Below are positions 1-13,620 of a stretch of DNA of 21,240 nt, in pieces (positions within the stretch are counted from its first letter, which is position 1; the number at the start of each line of letters is the position of its first letter). The notes below the pieces were generated by a model that did no database searches, was not told the origin of the DNA, and saw only the letters and a list, made by a program, of their open reading frames with translations. This DNA comes from Chthoniobacteraceae bacterium. Its GTDB lineage: Bacteria; Verrucomicrobiota; Verrucomicrobiia; Chthoniobacterales; Chthoniobacteraceae. Both the position numbers and the translations under genes were made by a program. Location of the stretch: NCBI GenBank assembly GCA_031409335.1, contig JANNWY010000126.1, positions 1-21,240 of the forward strand, written 5' to 3'.

Positions 1-1256
1 AGCGGGACGAAGCTTCGACCGTCGATTTCCGTATTGCTCGGTAAGCCGAACAGTTCAATGAGCGTAGGATAAAGGACGATCAAGTTCACCAGGCGGGGAC
101 AATCCTGCCGCGCCGTCATTCCCGGCACACGAATGGTCAACGGTAGGCGGGTGGACTCGGCCCAGAGCGTGGCTTTGCGGAGACGCAGTTTCTCGCCCAG
201 ATGCCAACCGTGATCTCCCCAGATGACGACAATCGTGTTGTCCCGGGCCGGACTTTTCTCCAGTGCATCAAGCACGCGCCCCACGCAATCGTCGGCATGG
301 CTGGAGGCGGCTAGATAGGCCTGCACCGCGCGCTTGAACAAGTTCGTATCCTGCTGCACCCAGTTGAAATCATCGCTGGGCTTGAATTTGGCTTTTCCCT
401 TGGCGTCCACGATATCGCCGAGGTCATCAAGGCGGAACTCCGGCAGCTTGATGCTTTCAAGCGGAAAACGATCGAAATACTCCTGCGGCACATACCAGGG
501 CAGATGCGGTTTGGAAATGCCCAGCGCGAGGAAGAAGGGTTTTGCCGATGGCTTGGCCAGTTGCGCCGCCGCCCATTCAGCCGCCTTCCAGTCTTTGGAT
601 TGTTCTTTTGGTCCCTTGGTTGGACCCCAGGCAAAGTCCACGCCTTCACCATCGCCACTATCATTGCCCGCGCTCTTCGACGGAGGGAACGGCGCGGGCT
701 TGCCGTCAATCAGGTTCCGTTTCCGGGAGGTCGTATGCTCTGGGTCAACTTGCGAACCGCTCCCGCCTTGCTTGGGGAACCATTCATCAAATGCCCAGGC
801 TACTTGGCCGCCGTGGAAAATCTTGCCCGTGGACAACGTCCGGCAGCCGTGCTTGGAAAAATACTCCGGCAGCGTGAAATGCGTCTGCACCAACTTGGCA
901 TCGAGCATATCCTGGCTGTTACCATAAACCCCGGTCCGGTTCGGCATGAAGCCCGACAGCAAAGCTGAGCGTGACGGACAGCAAACCGGCCCCGCGCAAT
1001 TGGCCTGCTGAAAAACCACCGACCCGCCCTGGGCAAACTTGTCCATCCGCGGCGTGGCTGACTGCGCCTGCGGTGCCCCACCAAAGGCCCCGACCCAGTC
1101 ATTCAAGTCATCAATGGCGATGAACAGCACGTTGTATTGTTTGCCCGGCGGTTCGCCGGGAGGTTCGGCAAAAAGATGGGCGGTAAAAAATATGGAGAGA
1201 ACGAGGCCCCATCTTTTACCACACATTTTTTTGCCGGGCATGAAGGTTGGTTTCAT
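1..1256 (-). CDS. Secreted formylglycine-dependent sulfatase (iduronate-2-sulfatase/choline-sulfatase-like), 3' end truncated by window edge
   Basis: Absent from the ORF track because it runs off the edge. Manual translation: MKPTFMPGKKMCGKRWGLVLSIFFTAHLFAEPPGEPPGKQYNVLFIAIDDLNDW...CCPSRSALLSG...GKIFH...KPHLPWYVP...GDHGWHLGEK...KATLW. It has the CxPxR signature and no stop through base 1. In-frame ATGs lie at 1277, 1256, 1241 and 1226, so the start is uncertain. Confidence 0.93.
   Translation of the reverse strand, partial: MKPTFMPGKKMCGKRWGLVLSIFFTAHLFAEPPGEPPGKQYNVLFIAIDDLNDWVGAFGGAPQAQSATPRMDKFAQGGSVVFQQANCAGPVCCPSRSALLSGFMPNRTGVYGNSQDMLDAKLVQTHFTLPEYFSKHGCRTLSTGKIFHGGQVAWAFDEWFPKQGGSGSQVDPEHTTSRKRNLIDGKPAPFPPSKSAGNDSGDGEGVDFAWGPTKGPKEQSKDWKAAEWAAAQLAKPSAKPFFLALGISKPHLPWYVPQEYFDRFPLESIKLPEFRLDDLGDIVDAKGKAKFKPSDDFNWVQQDTNLFKRAVQAYLAASSHADDCVGRVLDALEKSPARDNTIVVIWGDHGWHLGEKLRLRKATLWAESTRLPLTIRVPGMTARQDCPRLVNLIVLYPTLIELFGLPSNTEIDGRSFVP
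1166..1236. repeat. Palindromic element copy A (23-bp arms, 25-nt spacer), in frame in the sulfatase 5' end
   Basis: Left arm 1166-1188 is CGGCAAAAAGATGGGCGGTAAAA and right arm 1214-1236 is TTTTACCACACATTTTTTTGCCG (3 mismatches to a perfect inverted repeat). The left arm is identical to 3710-3732. Confidence 0.95.
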
Positions 1257-1289
1257 AGAGGATTGGGTCGTTTGCATTGGGTCAAGGAA

Positions 1290-3770
1290 TCAGCGGTTGA
1301 GGAAGAGTTCACTCGTAACCACGGCTTCAAGGAGTGACCGGAGGCCGTGTTTGTGCTTCGGCATTTCGGCGACGATCTTCTCCACGCTCGCTTCGTCGAG
1401 CGCACCGATGCGGCGACCGCAGGCGTAGGTGAGGAGGCGATCGGTGAGCATGTGGGCGAAGCGTTTCTGGCGCTCGACGAGGATCTTTTTCAGGCCGGAT
1501 ACGTCGGAAAACTTCTCGCCGCTGGGAAGCTCGCCGGCGGCGTCCACTTTGGTTTTACCAACGAGTGTCCGCCAGCCACCGATGGGGTCAAAGTTTTCCA
1601 ACGCGAAGCCGAGCGGATCAATCTTTTGATGGCAGCCGGCGCAGTTCGGCGATTCGCGATGCTTGCTGAGCAGCTCGCGCATGGACTTGGCTCCGCGCAC
1701 ATCGGGATCGATCGCCGGCACGTCATCGGGCGGCGGTGGTGGCGGAGTGCCGAGGATGTTTTCCAGCAGATATACGCCACGCACGACAGGCGAGGTCTCG
1801 ATGCCATTGGCGGTGATTGTGAGCACAGAGCCCATGCCTAGCAGTCCACCGCGCTTGTCGGTCTTGAAGCTGACTTTGCGGAACACATGCGCGTTGGCGG
1901 GATCGCCCAGCTCGCCGAGTTCGTAGTGCGTGGCGAGCGGCTGATTGAGGAGGCTGTAGTCGCAGTCGAGGAAGTTCACGATGCTGGCATCGCGCTCGAT
2001 GAGGTCGCGCATGAAAAGCCGTGTCTCCTGCTTGAAGGCGTGTTCGAGGCCCTTGGAATAGTAGGTTTCAAAGTCCTTCCGGTCCGGCGGCATGCCTCCG
2101 AGGCTGCGGAGGTTCAGCCAACTGTCGAGGAAGCCCGACACGAAGGCATCGGAGCGCGGGCTGGCCAACATGCGGCGCGTCTGGGCGGCGAGCACGTCGG
2201 GCTTGGTGAGTTCCTGGTTTTGTGCGAGCCGGAGCAGTTCCGCATCCGGCATGGAGGACCAGAGGAAATAGGAGAGCCGCGAGGCGAGAGCGTGGCTGTC
2301 GAGCTTGGGTCGGGCCTTCGAGTCCGCTTTCGCGGCGACGGTGTCTTGAGCGAGATAAATAAATGCCGGCGAGCAGAGCGCGGCTTTGAGTGCGTCCTTT
2401 AGACCTTCTTGCGGCGAACGTCCTGTGCTGATGCGTTTCTCCGCCACTGCCACGAGGCGATCCACTTCGTCTTTGGTGGATGGGCGGCGGTAGGCGCGAT
2501 CCGCAAAGGATTGGAGAACGCCGCGCATTCTTTCCGGCCTGAAGGGGGTTTTTCCGATCACGGCCTGCAGGCTCGATGGAGGCCATTGCTCGATGATGGG
2601 TCCGCGAATCTTCACCTCGTGAATTCGGATGTGCGGAATTTTTCCGATCATCACCGCAACATCGCGCGCGTCGCCGATGTCGAGGCGGTCTTTGCCTTTG
2701 TGTCGCCCCTTCGGCCATTTGTCTTTGTGATATTCCGAAATCCGGTGCCAAGATTTGCGGGCATCCTTGGGGCCGTTTGGGAAAACGAATCGAACGGTCT
2801 TCCCGGCATCGAGCCATACTTTCATTTTGTGCCAGACCGGCTCGCCATCGCTCATGGCCTGCTCTGCGAGCAAGGGCTGGAGCGGCTGGGGGAGTTCGAG
2901 CGGACCTGCATTCACGTCCCCGGGCACGACACCGAGCCGGAAAGGCTCGCGGGCGTCGGTGCCAAAAATCTCCGGGTCGTAGGGATGATTCCGGTTCATC
3001 GCGTGAGCGAGCACCTGCACTTCGTAAAAGCCGTCGGCAGGCGCTCCATCCTTGAAGCCGTCGATGAAACCGTAGCCTCCGACGTGCTTCTCCGAGTCCA
3101 TGCACTCGTAAATATTCAGGTGGCGGTTGTCGTATTCCTTTGCCGCCTTCAGGGACTTCTTCGTCGTCTGAAAGTTGTCTTTGAAATGCCACTCGCGCGC
3201 GGCAACCGGCTGCTGGAGTGCGAACACCTTTTCGACAACGGTGTCCGCAGCCTCGAGGTATTGTTCGAGCAAATAGCCGGAGGTTTGAAGCACATCGCCG
3301 AGATTCTCCATGTGTTCTTCGGATTGATCGCGGGGGAACTTCGTCGTGGGATCAAAAGCCGCCATGTTCAGCCCGAAGAGATCCCCGATGGTGTTGATGT
3401 ATTCGAGGCGGTTCAGGCGGCGCAAGACGGTGCTACCACCGGTGCTGGCAAGAGCCTCACGACCATCGGTGAGCGCCAGAGTCGCCTGCTCGATGAAAGC
3501 TCTCTGTTCCGCCGCCGAAGCTTGCTTGGCCTTCTTCGGCGGCATCTCGCCAAGGTGGATTTGATCCAGGATGTCTTTGAGATCGATCAGCGTGTCCAAC
3601 TTGGCGACCGGAAGCGCAAGCCCGTCAAAGCGCCGGTCGCCCTTCTGCTTTTCCGCGCCGTGGCAGTCGTTGCAGTAAGTCGTGAGGAAGCGCTGGATCT
3701 CGGAGGGGCCGGCAAAAAGATGGGCGGTAAAAGATAAGAAAAAAAGGAGTCCCCATTTTTTACCGCACAT
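1290..3770 (-). CDS. DUF1592-family planctomycete-type cytochrome c protein (PSCyt1, DUF1587, DUF1595, DUF1592, DUF1588, DUF1585 architecture)
   Basis: Two CxxCH motifs (YCNDCHG, CAGCHQKIDPLGFALENFD), plus RRLNRLEYINTI, LASRLSYFLWSSMPD and TSPVVRGVYLLENILGTPPPPPP. Start moved from 4073 to ATG 3770 (MCGKKWGLLFFLSFTAHLFA, signal-peptide-like) to avoid overlap with the GxxExxY gene; ~826 aa. Confidence 0.92.
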   Translation of the reverse strand: MCGKKWGLLFFLSFTAHLFAGPSEIQRFLTTYCNDCHGAEKQKGDRRFDGLALPVAKLDTLIDLKDILDQIHLGEMPPKKAKQASAAEQRAFIEQATLALTDGREALASTGGSTVLRRLNRLEYINTIGDLFGLNMAAFDPTTKFPRDQSEEHMENLGDVLQTSGYLLEQYLEAADTVVEKVFALQQPVAAREWHFKDNFQTTKKSLKAAKEYDNRHLNIYECMDSEKHVGGYGFIDGFKDGAPADGFYEVQVLAHAMNRNHPYDPEIFGTDAREPFRLGVVPGDVNAGPLELPQPLQPLLAEQAMSDGEPVWHKMKVWLDAGKTVRFVFPNGPKDARKSWHRISEYHKDKWPKGRHKGKDRLDIGDARDVAVMIGKIPHIRIHEVKIRGPIIEQWPPSSLQAVIGKTPFRPERMRGVLQSFADRAYRRPSTKDEVDRLVAVAEKRISTGRSPQEGLKDALKAALCSPAFIYLAQDTVAAKADSKARPKLDSHALASRLSYFLWSSMPDAELLRLAQNQELTKPDVLAAQTRRMLASPRSDAFVSGFLDSWLNLRSLGGMPPDRKDFETYYSKGLEHAFKQETRLFMRDLIERDASIVNFLDCDYSLLNQPLATHYELGELGDPANAHVFRKVSFKTDKRGGLLGMGSVLTITANGIETSPVVRGVYLLENILGTPPPPPPDDVPAIDPDVRGAKSMRELLSKHRESPNCAGCHQKIDPLGFALENFDPIGGWRTLVGKTKVDAAGELPSGEKFSDVSGLKKILVERQKRFAHMLTDRLLTYACGRRIGALDEASVEKIVAEMPKHKHGLRSLLEAVVTSELFLNR

Positions 3771-3782
3771 CTTTTTGCCGGC
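3708..3782. repeat. Palindromic element copy B (25-bp arms, 25-nt spacer); contains the proposed DUF1592 start codon and signal peptide
   Basis: 3708-3732 is GCCGGCAAAAAGATGGGCGGTAAAA and 3758-3782 is TTTTACCGCACATCTTTTTGCCGGC (1 mismatch). Confidence 0.97.
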
Positions 3783-3789
3783 TAAAAGG

Positions 3790-4575
3790 TCAGCGGATAG
3801 TCGTGAACGTGACATGCTTATGGGTGATGTTGGCCCAGTGAATGACATTGAGTGAAGTGTGCTGAAGGAGGCGGCGAGCATGCACCTCGAAAGCCTCGAT
3901 CCCGTCAGGGAAGACGGTGAGCTTAAAGGCGACATCCGGGGCCAACAAACGCAGCTTTTGCTCGTGAAGTTGTCCTTTGGCTCCCATGACAGGCACCGGC
4001 TGTAGAACCCGCTCTTCGCCACCAAGGAAATGGGTGAGTCCCTCCTCATAAAGCCCCGTCTCAAGGCCAGCACCCCAGTCTTGGATCATGCTGATCAGGT
4101 GGTCATGGAAGATAGATGCCCCAGCAACGGCGGAGTCGAAACTGGAAGTGTCCACGGAAGGATTTCGGAGGGCGTCCAGCCGCAGATGGCAATTCACGAA
4201 CTCATCGCCGACTCGCTCGGGCCGGACGTTGATGATTATTCCGTGCGGCAGATCAAAGAGGAGCAGGTAGTTGATGGTCTGGCCACGATGGCGGGGAACA
4301 ATGCTCTCCGCAGCCTTGAATTCGAAAATGCCTCGTTTGTGCGCCAAGACGTCGAGCTTGGAGAGCTTCGAGAAGGATCCGTGGGAGACGGTCACGGGGA
4401 GTTCCAGCTCCACGCCGGGCATCCTGTCGGCGAGTTCGCGTTTATAGACGGCTTCATCAAAGAAACGGCCGAACTCGTTGTGGATGTCATACACGCACTT
4501 CATCACGTCATAGGCGATCTGGCCGAACTCGGACTGAGTCGGGCGGACCGTTTCGGTGATGCGATGGAATGGCAT
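3790..4575 (-). CDS. GxxExxY family protein (PD-(D/E)XK nuclease-like), double-length with two tandem domains
   Basis: 261 aa. The N-domain has IHNEFGRFFDEAVYKREL, LDVL....IFEFKA (D...ExK) and QTINYL...GIIINV, the usual GxxExxY/PDDEXK_3 pattern. The second half repeats it degenerately (DWGAGLETGLYEEGL). Confidence 0.85.
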   Translation of the reverse strand: MPFHRITETVRPTQSEFGQIAYDVMKCVYDIHNEFGRFFDEAVYKRELADRMPGVELELPVTVSHGSFSKLSKLDVLAHKRGIFEFKAAESIVPRHRGQTINYLLLFDLPHGIIINVRPERVGDEFVNCHLRLDALRNPSVDTSSFDSAVAGASIFHDHLISMIQDWGAGLETGLYEEGLTHFLGGEERVLQPVPVMGAKGQLHEQKLRLLAPDVAFKLTVFPDGIEAFEVHARRLLQHTSLNVIHWANITHKHVTFTTIR

Positions 4576-4587
4576 GGATGGGTTTTA

Positions 4588-4658
4588 GCCGGCAAAAAGA
4601 TGGGCGTTAAAAAATAAATTCAGGGCTTTCAATTTTTACCGCTCTTCTTTTTGCCGGC
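4588..4658. repeat. Palindromic element copy C (26-bp arms), intergenic, non-coding
   Basis: 4588-4613 is GCCGGCAAAAAGATGGGCGTTAAAAA and 4633-4658 is TTTTTACCGCTCTTCTTTTTGCCGGC (3 mismatches). Confidence 0.95.
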
Positions 4659-4670
4659 CTCGTTCACGGT

Positions 4671-5987
4671 TTACGCGAGACCGGTGAGCGTGCCGGTGCT
4701 GGTGCCAAATGTTTTCACCTCCGCGCCGAAGCGATGGAGCATCGACAAATAGAGGTTGCACAACGGCTGACGCCCGAGGCCGCTCGTAGGATACGCCTTG
4801 TGCTCGCCGTGTTTGAAGCCGCCACCAGCAAGGACCAGTGGCAGGTTGCTGTTCGTGTGCGAATTGGCGTTGCCCATGCCGCTGCCGAAAAGGACCATCG
4901 AATGATCGAGCAGCGTGCCCGCGCCGTCCTCGATGGACTTGAGCTTGGCCAAGAAGCGCGCGAACTGCTCCACCTGATAGCGCTCCATCTTGACCAGGGC
5001 TTTGATGGCTTCCTCGCGCATGCCGTGATGCGAAAGCGCATGATAGCTGGACTTCAAATCGAAAGCCGAAGCCTCGAAGTCGCCGCCAATCTCGAACGTG
5101 GCGATGCGGGTGGAATCTGTCTGCAACGCGAGCGCGATGAGGTCATACATCACGGGCAAATCGGAGACAAAATCCTTGTTCTCCGGCTCCGCAATTTTCG
5201 GGTCGGGCTTCGGAACGTGCGCCCATTGGCGGCGCAGCTCGATCTGCTTCTCCACGTCGCGGACAGAGGTGAAATACTCCTCCAGCTTTTCCTTGTCCCG
5301 CTGACCCAGATGGCGCTCTAGCGATTTTGCATCGCCCTGCAACGCGTCGAGAATCGAGCCTTTTAGATCGAGCCGATCCAGCGACGCCCCGATGTCTGCG
5401 GCACCATCGGTAACGAACAGTTTCCGGAACAACTCACGCGGTGTGCTGATCGGCGGCACTCGCGTGCCGCTGCGTGTCCACGACATGAGGCAGCCGCCAT
5501 GGATGCCACTCTCGGATCCCAGGGCGAGCGAGGGAAACCTCGTGGCACCACCCATCGTTTCCGCGGCCCGTTGGTCCACGGTGATGTTGCCCTCGGGCAT
5601 GCCCTTGGCATCGGCGGTGCGCACGCCGCTGAGGAAGGAACTCATCGCAAAGTGCCCGCCCTTCACGCCATGATCGAGGCCGGAGAAGAGCGTGAAGTCT
5701 TTCTGGTGCGGCTTCAGCGCTTCGACGGAAGACGGCAGCACGTAATCCGTCCCCGTTTTCGTCGGGAAAAACGACTGCGGAACGAAACCAAGCAAGTTTC
5801 CGATGCACACCATCCGCTGCGGACGATCAGCGCCCGCCACCTTGCCGGGCAGCGACGCGATGGCAGAGTTTTGCGCGAAGACCCTGCCGCCCAAGGATTC
5901 CAGCAACGGCAACGCAAGGCTCACGCCTGCGGCTCGCAGGAAAACGCGCCGGTTTAGTAATAGAGGAGAAGGATTGGTGTGATTCAT
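4671..5987 (-). CDS. DUF1552 (HXXSHH) domain protein with Tat-like N-terminus
   Basis: NRRVFLRAAGVSLALPLLESL, TRFPSLALG, LALQTDSTRIATF, YHALSHH, TLLDHSMVLFGSGMGNANSH and PLCNLYLSML. Start placed at ATG 5987 (MNHTN) because 6098 overlaps the upstream gene; ~438 aa. Confidence 0.93.
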   Translation of the reverse strand: MNHTNPSPLLLNRRVFLRAAGVSLALPLLESLGGRVFAQNSAIASLPGKVAGADRPQRMVCIGNLLGFVPQSFFPTKTGTDYVLPSSVEALKPHQKDFTLFSGLDHGVKGGHFAMSSFLSGVRTADAKGMPEGNITVDQRAAETMGGATRFPSLALGSESGIHGGCLMSWTRSGTRVPPISTPRELFRKLFVTDGAADIGASLDRLDLKGSILDALQGDAKSLERHLGQRDKEKLEEYFTSVRDVEKQIELRRQWAHVPKPDPKIAEPENKDFVSDLPVMYDLIALALQTDSTRIATFEIGGDFEASAFDLKSSYHALSHHGMREEAIKALVKMERYQVEQFARFLAKLKSIEDGAGTLLDHSMVLFGSGMGNANSHTNSNLPLVLAGGGFKHGEHKAYPTSGLGRQPLCNLYLSMLHRFGAEVKTFGTSTGTLTGLA

Positions 5988-6018
5988 AGAATGCTGGTTT
6001 GGCTCAAAGACGGGGAAC

Positions 6019-9263: not shown

Positions 9264-11021
9264 CTACGGTTTGGGATTTGCCGCACGCGGGGCGTCGGGT
9301 CTGGGGAGGACGTTCGTGCGTTTCGCCCACGCTTCCCATTTTGCGGACATGTCCTTCACGCGCTCCGGTTGCGAGGCGGCGAGGTCATTCATCTCCACGC
9401 GGTCGGCGTCCATGTCGTATAGCTCCCATAGCGCGGTGCCGGCGGAGACGAGTTTCCATTTACCTTCGCGAATCGCGCGGTTGCCCTCGTGTTCCCAGGC
9501 GAGGAGACGGGGAGGCAGCGAGGCGGAGGAACTGGGAGCCGAAGCCAGTAACGGGCGCAGACTCACGCCTTCCAACGGGAGGACTTTCTTTCCATCCCAC
9601 TCTGCGGGATACTTCGCGCCTGCGATGTCCACACACGTTGCCATGAGGTCAATGAGATGCGCCGGCTCGCGCACGAACCGCCCCTTTGCCGTGTCTTTCC
9701 CAACGGAAGCCGGCCAGTGCGCGATGAGCGGCGTGCCGATGCCGCCTTCGTGGCCGTAATGTTTGTAGAGGCGCCACGGTGTGTTGCACGCGTTTGCCCA
9801 GCCGGAGCCGTAGCTCGGGAACGAACCGGCCTGGCCCATCGTCGCGAGTTCATCGCCGCGGTAGAGTTTGTTCGGGAGCGCCTGCGTGCCCTGGTTGAGG
9901 CCGGTGCCGGGCACGGGATTCGGCGTCGGCAGCATCTCGAATCCGAATGGCTCCCACTCCGCGCATGCGCCGTTGTCGCTGAGGAAAAGGATGAGCGTGT
10001 TGTCGAGTTGTCCGCTGGATCTCAAGTCGGCGAGCAGGCGTCCGATGTTGCGGTCCATGCCCGTGACCATTCCAGCATAGACTGCCATGCGCTGCGCGAG
10101 GTCGGCCCGTCGATCAGCGGGCAGCGAATCCCACGCGGGATTATTCCCGTCATCAGTCCACGAGCCGAGACGCTTGGAAGCGACGGGATGGGTGATCTTG
10201 CTGCGCGGCGTGAGCGCGGTCCCCTCGGGCAGCAGGCCGATTTTCTTCTGCCGCGCGAGGCGTTGCTCGCGGATCTTGTCCCAGCCTTGCGCGTAGATTT
10301 CCGAGTAGCCGGTCATGTCCTCGCGTTTCGACTGCACAGGGAAATGCGGGGCCTGATACCCAATGTAGAGCAGCCACGGCGCGCCCGCTTTTTGCATATC
10401 GGCGAGAAAATCCAGCGCGTGATCGGTGATCGCGTCGGTGGCGAAAAATCCGCCGGGCACGTAGCGGCGCTGCGGGCGGCCCTCGGGCAGGCGCGTCATC
10501 ATGCGCGGTTCCCACGAGTCCACTCCGTAGCCACCGACGAAGCCGTAGAAGTCATCGAAGCCGCGCTTGGTCGGCGGTTCGCTGTCGCCCACGTGCCATT
10601 TACCGGCGGCAGCAGTGCGATAGCCGGCGGGCTTGAGCACCTGCGCGATGGTCAAGCAGTTCGCGTTCAGCGCGCCGCGATAACCGGGGAACGCCTCACC
10701 TTTGTCCCCCGCACCTGGAAACTTCGCGGCCTTATCGGAAGTCATCAGCCCGATGCCCGCTTGATGCGGATAAATCCCTGTGAGTAGCGACGCCCGCGAC
10801 GGACAGCAGCGCGTGGAGGTATAGAACTGCGTGAAGCGCAACCCACCCGTGGCGAGCGAATCGAGATTCGGCGTGCGGATCTCACCGCCAAAGCACCCGA
10901 GGTCCGACCAGCCGAGATCATCAGCGAGGATGATGAGGATGTTTGGCCTGTCAGCCCCGGCGTGCAGCGGGGCCTGCGGCACCAGCAGCAGGGCGATGAT
11001 GAGCGTGACGATGTGTTTCAA
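9264..11021 (-). CDS. Secreted arylsulfatase (AtsA-like formylglycine sulfatase)
   Basis: Signal peptide, RPNILIILADDLGWSD, RCCPSRASLLTG, GKWH, QAPHFP, FLSDNGA and HEGGIGTPLI. The TTG start overlaps the upstream TGA. Confidence 0.96.
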   Translation of the reverse strand: MKHIVTLIIALLLVPQAPLHAGADRPNILIILADDLGWSDLGCFGGEIRTPNLDSLATGGLRFTQFYTSTRCCPSRASLLTGIYPHQAGIGLMTSDKAAKFPGAGDKGEAFPGYRGALNANCLTIAQVLKPAGYRTAAAGKWHVGDSEPPTKRGFDDFYGFVGGYGVDSWEPRMMTRLPEGRPQRRYVPGGFFATDAITDHALDFLADMQKAGAPWLLYIGYQAPHFPVQSKREDMTGYSEIYAQGWDKIREQRLARQKKIGLLPEGTALTPRSKITHPVASKRLGSWTDDGNNPAWDSLPADRRADLAQRMAVYAGMVTGMDRNIGRLLADLRSSGQLDNTLILFLSDNGACAEWEPFGFEMLPTPNPVPGTGLNQGTQALPNKLYRGDELATMGQAGSFPSYGSGWANACNTPWRLYKHYGHEGGIGTPLIAHWPASVGKDTAKGRFVREPAHLIDLMATCVDIAGAKYPAEWDGKKVLPLEGVSLRPLLASAPSSSASLPPRLLAWEHEGNRAIREGKWKLVSAGTALWELYDMDADRVEMNDLAASQPERVKDMSAKWEAWAKRTNVLPRPDAPRAANPKP

Positions 11022-12514
11022 TGCTTTGCCTTCTGGTTCTTCCTTTTCTCCGCCGTGGCTTCGTCGGTCCGGCTTTGCGGGGAAAGGTAATGATCGAACA
11101 CCTCACCCTGGCCGAGGGCGCGTGGGTCGTTCTGTTTCTTGAGTTCGTCCATGAGCGTCCCATGCAGGGTGGCGAGTTTTTCCGCGAAGGAGGGATTGGT
11201 GGCGAGGTTCACGACGCAGTCGGGATCTTTACTGAGGTCGAACAATTGCTCGGCCGGACGTTTGCCGAAGGCGTGCTGCCAGAAAGGATCTTGCTCGCCG
11301 CTTTCCGTCGCGAGAGTTTTGCTCGGACTGGCGTCGGTGTCCTTCGTGCCCAGTTCGGGATTGCCGCACGGCCAGCGGTCCGGGGCGAAGTTGTGGACGT
11401 AAAATAAATCACCCCTGCGAATCGCGCGCGCCGGATAGCCGAGACCCGCCGGCGAGCCCGGACGCGCCAGCACGTCGTTGCGCTCCCGCCCGACGATAAC
11501 CATATCGCGTTCGGCTTTCGCTTCGTTGCGGAGCAAATCGGTGAAGCTCCGACCGGTGATGGGCGACATGCCCTGCGCGGCGCCATTCACGCCGAACAGT
11601 TCGAGGAACGTCGGCGCGAGGTCTATGAAGCTGATGAAGTCCGCGACGCGGCGGCCCGGTTTCGTGATTCCCGCAGGCCATGCGGCGACGAACGGAATAT
11701 GATGCGCGTCGTCGTAGGTGTGACCCTTCACGCGAGGAAACGGCATGCCATGATCCGAGGTGACGATGACCAAGGTGTTCTTCGCCTCGCCGCTTGCTGC
11801 TAGCGCCGCGAGTAGCGAGCCGACCTGCGCGTCATAGGCTTCCACCTCCATCGCATAGTCAAGCATGTCGCCGCGGATGAGATCATTGTCGGGCCAGTAG
11901 GCGGGCACGCGTTCGATGTCGGAGGGTTTCTTGCCGGCGGCGATGCCGGAGCCGGGCTTGTAAGAGCGATGTGGGTTTTTACTGCCAAACCAATAGAGAA
12001 AAGGCGTGCCCGCCGCGCGCTTGTTAAGAAACGCAGTGAGGCCGGCACCGGGATCGCTCGCGTCTTTGCCACCGCCGCCGAGGGCGAAGTCGCGCGGGCT
12101 GCCATCAGCCAGTTTCGCTTCGCCCGGACCCCAGGTCTTGCCCGCAGCGCCGGTTCGGATGCCGGCCTTCGCGAGCGCTTCGCTGAAGGCCATGAACTTC
12201 GCAGGAAAATACGGCTGATGATTCGCGGCGTCCTCGATCTGCCACGGATTGCGGCCAGTGAGAATGGACGCCCTCGACGGCGCGCATTTCGACGTCGGAG
12301 TGTAGGCGTTTTCAAAGACCAGACCATGCTTTGCGAGGCGGTCAATGTTCGGCGTCTTTGCCCAGTTGCAGCCATAGGCTTCGCCAAAATGACGCGACGC
12401 ATCGTCGGCGATGATGAAAAGGACATTGGGCCGGACCGCCGCCGCATCCACCGCCCGCGCGGCGAAATACGGAGCCAGCAGCAGGGCAACGATAAGTGTG
12501 ATTGTATGTTTCAT
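11018..12514 (-). CDS. Secreted sulfatase (N-sulfoglucosamine sulfohydrolase/sulfamidase-like)
   Basis: RPNVLFIIADD, KCAPSRASILTG, NPHRSY, TSDHGMPFPRVKG, GRERND and GYPARAIR. Start placed at ATG 12514 (MKHTITL), with an ATGA overlap with the lactonase stop; ~498 aa. Confidence 0.94.
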   Translation of the reverse strand: MKHTITLIVALLLAPYFAARAVDAAAVRPNVLFIIADDASRHFGEAYGCNWAKTPNIDRLAKHGLVFENAYTPTSKCAPSRASILTGRNPWQIEDAANHQPYFPAKFMAFSEALAKAGIRTGAAGKTWGPGEAKLADGSPRDFALGGGGKDASDPGAGLTAFLNKRAAGTPFLYWFGSKNPHRSYKPGSGIAAGKKPSDIERVPAYWPDNDLIRGDMLDYAMEVEAYDAQVGSLLAALAASGEAKNTLVIVTSDHGMPFPRVKGHTYDDAHHIPFVAAWPAGITKPGRRVADFISFIDLAPTFLELFGVNGAAQGMSPITGRSFTDLLRNEAKAERDMVIVGRERNDVLARPGSPAGLGYPARAIRRGDLFYVHNFAPDRWPCGNPELGTKDTDASPSKTLATESGEQDPFWQHAFGKRPAEQLFDLSKDPDCVVNLATNPSFAEKLATLHGTLMDELKKQNDPRALGQGEVFDHYLSPQSRTDEATAEKRKNQKAKH

Positions 12515-13620
12515 GGTGGGAGAAGATGCCGGTCGAACTTTACGCCCAGCACCCAGGCGGGATTTTTGCCGCAGTCGTAAGTCTGCAGCGGAGTGAGCGC
12601 CCCGGTGGTGGTGTCGCGACGGTAGACGATCAGCCGGTTCGCGCCCTGGCCGGCGGATACGACGAACTTTTCGCCGCCGGGCATCAGGCAAAAGGAGCGT
12701 GGCGTTTTTTCCGTCGGCGTCTGGCCGAGCGACTTCAGTTCACCCGAGTCGGGATGAATCGAGAAGACGGCGAGGCTGTCGTGCCCGCGGTTCGACGCGT
12801 AGGCGAAGCGCCCGTCCGCGCTGACCTGAATGTCCGCGCTCGAGCCCTTCAATTTGTCCCAATTGTCCGGCGTCGTCGAGAGCGTCTGACGGATCTTCAA
12901 AGTGCCCGCTGTTTGATCATAGTCGCACAACGTCACGCTCTGGCCTTGCTCATTGACGAGATACACCCAGCGCCCGTTCGGGTGGAATTGCATGTGCCGT
13001 GGCCCCTGCCCGGGGCCGCCCCCCATCGACGGCGGCGTGTGCGGAGCGAGCGAGCCCGCGACCGGATCGAAGCGGAGCTGCTCGACTTTGTTCATCTCGC
13101 CCACGTGCGGGACAAAGGCGAAGCGATTGGCTGCATCAAGCTTCAAGGAGTGCGCCTTACTGCCCGTTGCCAGTGTCTGGACTGGCGCTCCTGTGATCAC
13201 GCCGTCCGTGATTCGGCTAAGCGTTACGACGCCTTCGCTGTAGGAAGCGGCGAGCAGCCAGCGGCCCGTCTTGTCCACCTGCACGAACGCAGCGTTCATG
13301 CCCGCAGGGCTAAAGACCGGATTGGCCAGCAAGCCGGTGGCGCGATCGATGGCGAGCGTCGCAAACTGCTTACCCGAGCGCACCGCAGCATAGAGGTGCG
13401 TACGATCCGCACCGATCGCCAGGCTACCCGGCGAGCCCGGCAAATCCACCGCGCCCGCACGGGTCAGTTCGCCGGTCTTTTCGTCCATCGAATAGACCGC
13501 GATGCGTTTCTCCCCGCTCTCGGAAACGTAAAGCACCGTCGGTGATGCATCAGCTGCGTGCAGAATTGCGGCCGCCGCAGGGAGCAGAATACCGGCGAAA
13601 AGTGCGAGGGTGTGTTTCAT
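12511..13620 (-). CDS. Lactonase, 7-bladed beta-propeller (Pgl/YbhE family), with signal peptide
   Basis: Motifs KAHS, GPRHMQFHPNGRWVYLVNE, ADIQVSADGRFAYASNRGHDS and TPRSF; hydrophobic N-terminus. Confidence 0.93.
   Translation of the reverse strand: MKHTLALFAGILLPAAAAILHAADASPTVLYVSESGEKRIAVYSMDEKTGELTRAGAVDLPGSPGSLAIGADRTHLYAAVRSGKQFATLAIDRATGLLANPVFSPAGMNAAFVQVDKTGRWLLAASYSEGVVTLSRITDGVITGAPVQTLATGSKAHSLKLDAANRFAFVPHVGEMNKVEQLRFDPVAGSLAPHTPPSMGGGPGQGPRHMQFHPNGRWVYLVNEQGQSVTLCDYDQTAGTLKIRQTLSTTPDNWDKLKGSSADIQVSADGRFAYASNRGHDSLAVFSIHPDSGELKSLGQTPTEKTPRSFCLMPGGEKFVVSAGQGANRLIVYRRDTTTGALTPLQTYDCGKNPAWVLGVKFDRHLLPP

Follow-up and report, generated by a model that had tools for sequence, protein, structure and literature searches.

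The closest described case of a palindromic repeat that contributes to an export signal is the RU-2/YPAL miniature inverted-repeat transposable element (MITE) of Yersinia, where it makes up a portion of the signal peptide predicted for YPO1552 (PMC2759123; review PMC2229807). Small enzyme genes framed by palindromes are also on record. In the Ssn/NTS system a small nuclease gene lies between hairpin repeats that occur solo elsewhere (PMC11893778), and in the RAYT/REP and TIRYT/TIRtron arrangements an enzyme gene is flanked by palindromes also found alone and in coding regions, with signal peptides going unmentioned in that paper (PMC3733652). The subject of the present analysis is a 21,240-nucleotide stretch of contig JANNWY010000126.1 from a Chthoniobacteraceae bacterium (‘the window’), in which two related hairpins, A and B, encode the N-termini of a sulfatase and of a DUF1592-family cytochrome c protein, and in which hairpin B, together with a third copy, C, brackets a gene for a GxxExxY protein, predicted to be a PD-(D/E)XK nuclease. 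Hairpin B is the right end of the resulting cassette, hairpin A repeats this end without the gene, and sequence comparison indicates that the right-end hairpin likely serves as the export signal of several unrelated proteins.

An original prediction, made from the letters of the window, had taken the hairpin to be a free repeat that supplies both a start codon and a secretion tag, and had held that no case of a palindrome as export signal was known, to which the Yersinia element is an exception. For the protein family concerned, PF13366, function is given as unknown (PMC3424549). A literature search that covered few subscription papers returned no description of GxxExxY hairpin cassettes, and a passage on GxxExxY in one paper does not mention repeats. 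The same search found nothing that combined signal peptides with palindromic elements or exaptation, and nothing relevant on signal-peptide gain or loss among the matches listed.

Hairpins A and B and the character of their peptides

On the minus strand hairpin A (1167-1235) encodes GKKMCGKRWGLVLSIFFTAHLFA and hairpin B (3711-3779) encodes GKKMCGKKWGLLFFLSFTAHLFA; each has 22-nucleotide (nt) arms about a 25-nt spacer, and the two agree at 59 of 69 bases. The original prediction was exact as to both peptides, the spacers and the codon changes (codons 3, 5, 8 and 10), and likewise named the hosts correctly, A heading a sulfatase (PF00884) and B a DUF1592/1588/1585/1595/1587 cytochrome c protein. 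Against shuffled sequence the folding z-score is -5.0 for A and -8.4 for B. The arm is rare: with up to 5 mismatches allowed, the 7.94 Mb source genome has 13 matches, which make up six full hairpins and a lone arm (one relative has as many as 30 matches), and four of the six full hairpins encode leaders. Junction A (1107-1439) is spanned with 0 differences by a contig of run X2, which may be the source sample.

In hydropathy, taken as the best 9-residue window (a home-made measure), A scores 2.47 and B 2.23, each inside the 5-95% range of the native leaders of its own homologues (2.08-3.20, n=110/120, for the sulfatases; 2.01-3.23, n=78/120, for the DUF1592 proteins). As in a Sec/signal peptidase I signal peptide, a basic n-region is followed by a hydrophobic h-region, leader net charge being +2 to +5, and the predicted L-F-A cut has a small residue at -1 and an allowed one at -3, in the register seen in orthologues. 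Leu at -3 is the commonest native DUF1592 choice (37/76), and the T-rich 3′ arm, reading F-T-A-H-L-F-A, fits the L-x-A cut usual in the lineage. Apart from the hairpin peptide, neither a further leader nor a Met that could serve as start precedes the catalytic or heme motifs.

The spacer is under hydrophobic constraint. Comparison of 11 distinct 69-nt copies gives 17 amino-acid variants, of which 14 are hydrophobic compared to 55% expected, and charged residues, Pro, Gly or stop account for 0 of 66 spacer residues. Mean spacer hydropathy is 2.14 in fused right-end copies (n=17, selected for being in frame), 0.03 in left ends (n=19) and 0.38 in unfused right-type copies (n=11), all hand-curated out of 116 distinct hairpins, the remainder having been left out as a codon-model gene caller could not classify them (genes are missed in lower-GC loci). 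T at codon position 2 occurs in 4.4 of 7 codons in fused spacers versus 2.5 in left ends.

An Rfam scan of positions 1-6000 found no family at gathering threshold and 9 microRNA-type matches, all far below it. The hairpins are missing from a terminator scan list, which is uninformative since the scan admits loops of 3-8 nt only. A close paralogue of the window sulfatase, cut by a contig end, lies at G000:C27:13116-14158. Elsewhere in the window, the N-terminal coding DNA of three neighbouring secreted-type genes (10977-11020, 12470-12513 and 13576-13619) is 61-77% alike, with MKH-type leaders.

Probable replacement of native leaders

The original prediction had suggested comparing the N-termini of orthologues, and ordinary signal peptides do occupy the same register as the hairpin peptide. 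Leader type was compared in 120 sulfatase and 120 DUF1592 homologues. Among the former, none has the hairpin leader and ordinary leaders lie in the same register, bar a few truncated entries; among the latter, a hairpin-type leader is present in 38, the window's own included (37 by a looser pattern), with native leaders in the same register in those outside the 38. (Close DUF1592 matches are present in 6 of 401 genomes of the phylum, the source genome among the 6.) For PF06439, another host of the hairpin, all 13 motif-matching loci of 15 fetched have a native leader in register, without this hairpin's arm upstream. At locus L059 the hairpin is upstream of an intact native leader, and in the G000:C27 homologue it is joined at the cut site.

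Leader type is also scattered over the host tree, built from mature DUF1592 domains with 10 hairpin-leader and 18 native-leader rows chosen from the 120. The leader label takes 9 changes on it, 6 of them forced by strong branches, and a single clade of hairpin leaders is rejected (approximately unbiased test, p-AU 4e-46). A native leader heads the nearest sister of the window's DUF1592 protein (90% identity), and clustering of the label does not exceed that in shuffles (407/500). At similar mature-domain identity, leaders of hairpin type are 68% alike and native ones 50%, and the greater likeness of the former suggests recent lateral spread.

The right end is in frame with at least six protein families: DUF1592, PSCyt1-DUF1549, PF06439, sulfatase, the cytochrome c protein of C27 and an unassigned protein of L095. 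Besides its two hosts in the window, the 69-nt hairpin heads two more proteins of the source genome, one of PF06439 (C246) and the C27 cytochrome c protein; a fifth begins with a copy that is doubled and decayed. Of 26 distinct GxxExxY 3′ ends, 13 run straight into an exported-type protein (a label given on domain content and on the native leaders of homologues), 2 do so via the last tandem copy and 2 via a second, decayed element. The other 9 are unfused: 4 precede malate synthase (recognised by Pfam in L035 and L089 and from a similar N-terminus in L071 and L074), 1 precedes an intact native leader (L049) and 4 have no same-strand gene that was found. The spacers, and a tail of ~9 bases past the arm, are homologous across unrelated hosts, which points to a single module that has been re-used. 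In L045 and L080 the first arm has decayed and the leader is kept.

Several further arrangements of the repeat were encountered. A ~169-bp unit (GxxExxY 3′ end, hairpin and first host codons) is found as tandem and dispersed gene-less copies (L033:1801-2206, L067:2379-2616, L051, L064, L073, L079, L100, L103, L105 and L138), of which the tandem cases may be assembly artefacts. At L057:1502-1570, upstream of a short-chain dehydrogenase, a leader-type spacer runs opposite to the orientation of the cassette, suggesting that the segment between the arms has flipped. Nested double elements (G000:C27:3200-3480, L121, L037 and L038) have a newer hairpin upstream, and the end of the leader is still formed by an older half-hairpin. 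In the DUF1592 leader of L168 a different, heptamer-type repeat apparently contributes to the signal peptide at this position, clearly so in the DNA, and similar repeats in the PF06439 leaders of L188 and L196 were judged from peptide only.

Where translation starts

The original prediction stands in part. Stand-in for native leaders in register, hydropathy in the native range and recurrence in unrelated exported-type proteins all argue for the palindrome as export signal; a start supplied by the arm is not supported. Folding predictions place the arm ATG within the stem, with an unpaired probability of 0.14-0.17 as against ~0.7 for neighbouring starts. No ATG lies within the hairpin in L080 and L095, and the arm Met is lacking in 11 homologue leaders, counted by eye on protein only. 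For B, the in-frame ATG at 3815 is predicted open (0.63) and overlaps the GxxExxY gene's 3′ end, being made of the CAT codon of His254 plus a G. An ATG of this type is lost in 3 of 26 loci, none of them with a same-strand gene, and deletion remnants in C27 and L162 retain the stretch that contains it. For A, the ATG at 1256 is predicted open (0.76) and begins a peptide like native sulfatase leaders; other in-frame ATGs are at 1277, 1241 and 1226 (the arm), and the bases upstream of A may be either the native start or a GxxExxY remnant. As the next Met after the hairpin lies past the sulfatase IDD motif and past CxxCH respectively, a start downstream would truncate both proteins. Given the predicted pairing of the arm ATG, its absence from many leaders and better fitting open ATGs upstream, the arm is probably not the start, and translation likely begins just upstream of the hairpin, at 3815 for B and 1256 for A. 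(Over the whole genome a Shine-Dalgarno-like 4-mer precedes only 36 of 510 starts of MK-plus-hydrophobic type, and the upstream bases are C-rich.)

The GxxExxY cassette

The repeat is real. Its picture as a free repeat was incomplete, with neither the third copy, C, nor the gene that B and C bracket having been mentioned (Table 1). The GxxExxY protein scores well over the cut-offs of the relevant hidden Markov models (54.9 bits versus 35 for TIGR04256; 55.9 versus 22 for PF13366), and the five residues given for it in Table 1 are unchanged in all 50 sequences aligned, chosen from 120 listed. Its predicted structure has a pLDDT (predicted local distance difference test) of 95.6 and weakly resembles Cas4/RecB-type nucleases, the best fold match being Cas4 SSO0001 with E 5e-4 and a template-modelling (TM) score of only 0.29; D75, E85 and K87 supply the D...ExK residues of a PD-(D/E)XK nuclease, which together with the fold supports that assignment, the activity being putative. 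An internal duplication of the protein was considered and rejected: the order of secondary structure repeats, yet without BLASTP or Pfam support.

Table 1. Features of the cassette and of the genes headed by its right end (positions in the window)
Feature	Position	Strand	Remarks
Mature sulfatase (PF00884)	3..1166	-	runs off contig end
Hairpin A, gene-less copy of cassette right end	1164..1238	-	arms 1214-1235 and 1167-1188, 25-nt spacer
Predicted 30-aa sulfatase signal peptide	1167..1256	-	from native-type ATG 1256; putative start and cleavage
Mature DUF1592-family cytochrome c protein	1290..3710	-	CxxCH 12 residues past predicted cut
Hairpin B, cassette right end	3708..3782	-	arms 3758-3779 and 3711-3732, 25-nt spacer
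Predicted 35-aa DUF1592 leader	3711..3815	-	from putative ATG 3815; alternative, arm ATG 3770
GxxExxY gene, 261 aa (TIGR04256, PF13366)	3790..4575	-	invariant D75, E85, K87, Q99, Y103
Hairpin C, cassette left end	4588..4658	-	21-nt spacer, intergenic
DUF1552 gene	4671..5984	-	upstream neighbour of DUF1592 in cassette-free alleles too

Inverted-repeat flanks are present on all 4 GxxExxY genes of the genome, as read by eye in the printed sequence, and close relatives of the gene are at 16 loci in Verrucomicrobia and Pirellulaceae records. In 16 two-ended cassettes, kin among them being non-independent, the left arm differs from the right one by 1.98 bases when both belong to one cassette and by 3.64 when they come from different cassettes. 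Often the upstream gene's stop codon is supplied by the left hairpin. Alleles free of the cassette also exist: a contig of run X5 connects 3695 to 4672 via 123 other letters, and L167 and L177 have cassette-free junctions with both window genes in the same order.

Two more GxxExxY cassettes, with different arms, are at G000:C155:8500-9700 (L182) and G000:C30:33900-34900 (L181), and in that of C30 the left arm gives the upstream gene's stop and the right arm ends at a native ATG. Members of the same hairpin family directly precede DUF1016/YhcG PD-(D/E)XK genes (L085:1462-1522; L116:1503-1564), so other nucleases may share these arms. At L162:374-442 an internal deletion has left the GxxExxY gene with the 10 codons at its start and ~12 at its end, which read through into the leader region, without a left hairpin.

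Proposed capture and re-use, and alternatives

The anatomy of the cassette, in-register substitution, scatter of hairpin leaders across the tree of hosts and the constraint that keeps fused spacers hydrophobic form the observational basis for the reading that we favour with somewhat better than even confidence, namely that the right end of the GxxExxY cassette was captured once as a signal-peptide module, re-used by recombination and filtered by selection. The cassette sits at operon junctions, B and C being its two ends and A a gene-less copy of the right one. The module, comprising the last nuclease codons, the hairpin and a short tail, would have become a signal peptide once, and recombination probably carried it into new alleles and unrelated exported proteins, with replacement of native leaders. 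Landings that removed a gene's 5′ end would presumably persist only if joined in frame near the peptidase site. With starts likely upstream of the stem, the buried arm ATG would be dispensable and, the native leader once gone, the module would be retained while nuclease gene and first arm decay. By analogy, the nuclease may act on the hairpins and promote movement. In this reading export, cleavage, the starts and any role of the nuclease in movement are inferred.

A set of considerations weighs against this reading. Nearest neighbours are different ones for the C-terminal half of the DUF1592 protein, so that mosaicism of a general kind could account for the scattered leaders without cassette activity, and the tree cannot separate gain from loss. 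When single copies are shuffled, the result for spacer hydropathy is marginal (p 0.011-0.61). The multiple-of-3 length of the 17 fused copies is circular as they were picked for being in frame, and hairpin copies have common ancestry, so that counts are not independent. In all 22 loci that have His at position 254 its codon is CAT, an invariance that on its own is weak since 10 of 82 two-fold sites of the gene are invariant. Inspection by eye of the 16-nt flanks in 16 cassettes showed no target-site duplication.

The alternatives differ chiefly in what they make of the module and of the nuclease. That a free repeat gives start codon and whole signal peptide independently per gene, as first proposed, has in its favor that a start at the arm ATG, where the database gene call P0121 begins, yields a compact 20-aa leader, with the 32 aa to CxxCH being at the lower edge of the native range. 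Against it stand the pairing and patchy occurrence of that ATG described above, the flanking of a nuclease gene by hairpin B and, with homologous spacers and tail on unrelated hosts, the indication of one module rather than independent captures, and this version now appears improbable. An adapted design, in which the cassette keeps a portable leader and coupled start to limit the damage it does and, in the manner of free-standing homing endonucleases, spreads as its nuclease drives conversion of alleles that lack it, would account for the leader being carried by ~1/3 of DUF1592 homologues with so little clustering and for the greater likeness of hairpin leaders, and accords with invariant catalytic-type residues and with left arms that often give an upstream stop codon. 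However, it has to suppose a cut site and an activity, homologous homing cannot explain jumps into genes that are unrelated, two distant cassettes, at C30 and L004, stop immediately short of a native ATG without coding for a leader, and entry of an unrelated heptamer repeat at the same position in L168 implies that leaders are permissive and tolerate any T-rich repeat. It is therefore rated as unlikely. Its boldest form is doubtful to a like, if marginally lesser, degree: that a selfish GxxExxY cassette mends its own insertion damage, with a left-arm stop and a right-end coupled start plus complete signal peptide, while its nuclease drives conversion, so rewriting the export signals of unrelated proteins.

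Two remaining explanations have very little probability. In one, the hairpin arose from native signal-peptide DNA by template switching, the nuclease link being incidental. Two-sided changes in 5 of 22 arm pairs and the flipped L057 spacer would be expected from it, but the same arms are present at the non-coding left end and co-vary within the cassette, native leaders are without such arms, identical modules are on unrelated genes, and cassette-free alleles with unrelated leaders largely refute it. In the other, just as improbable, the fused genes are damaged or their products unexported and the look of a leader is a by-product of T-rich DNA. T-rich arms do yield Phe, Leu and Ile in several frames, and some dispersed 169-bp copies hold the leader frame without a gene behind. 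Nevertheless, host frames are intact, the leader outlasts hairpin decay (L045, L080, P0127-type), fused spacers are enriched in T at codon position 2, and attachment of c-type heme requires export.

On the reading of a module captured once, the locus lets one trace how mobile DNA turns into a part that a protein requires, the stages being visible from hairpin upstream of an intact leader, through fusion at the cut site and loss of the nuclease gene, to hairpin decay with the peptide kept. It also provides a candidate DNA substrate for the widespread, little-studied nuclease family PF13366, and predicts overlapping start codons that gene callers miss.

Relation to known systems

RU-2/YPAL in Yersinia involves one locus and a proposed new gene, without a nuclease partner or a replaced native leader (PMC2759123), whereas here one module is in at least six families, orthologous leaders are replaced and selection is apparent. 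The target-site duplication expected of a MITE of that type is not seen here. The in-frame palindromes of Rickettsia are also in unrelated proteins, but are additions within tolerant proteins (PMC2229807), while the present element replaces a required part.

As in Ssn/NTS, a nuclease gene has hairpin flanks that co-vary with each other (16 cassettes). SsnA, however, is a GIY-YIG enzyme with demonstrated cleavage of single-stranded DNA, and the GxxExxY protein, a predicted PD-(D/E)XK nuclease, matched PF13366 and TIGR04256 only, with no GIY-YIG match. NTS repeats number in the hundreds, 2% of them in genes (PMC11893778), compared with six full hairpins here, four of which code for leaders. The RAYT and TIRYT enzymes are HUH tyrosine transposases (PMC3733652), and family searches with the hairpin-flanked gene gave no HUH/Y1 transposase match. 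For conversion of alleles, the analogue is the intronless homing of free-standing T4 homing endonucleases (PMC2988022), where too an intergenic nuclease gene lies between conserved genes, is patchy among alleles and has altered flanks. Patchy distribution is the likeness tested here, and the cassette differs from the T4 genes in its hairpin ends and in its occurrence at unrelated loci.

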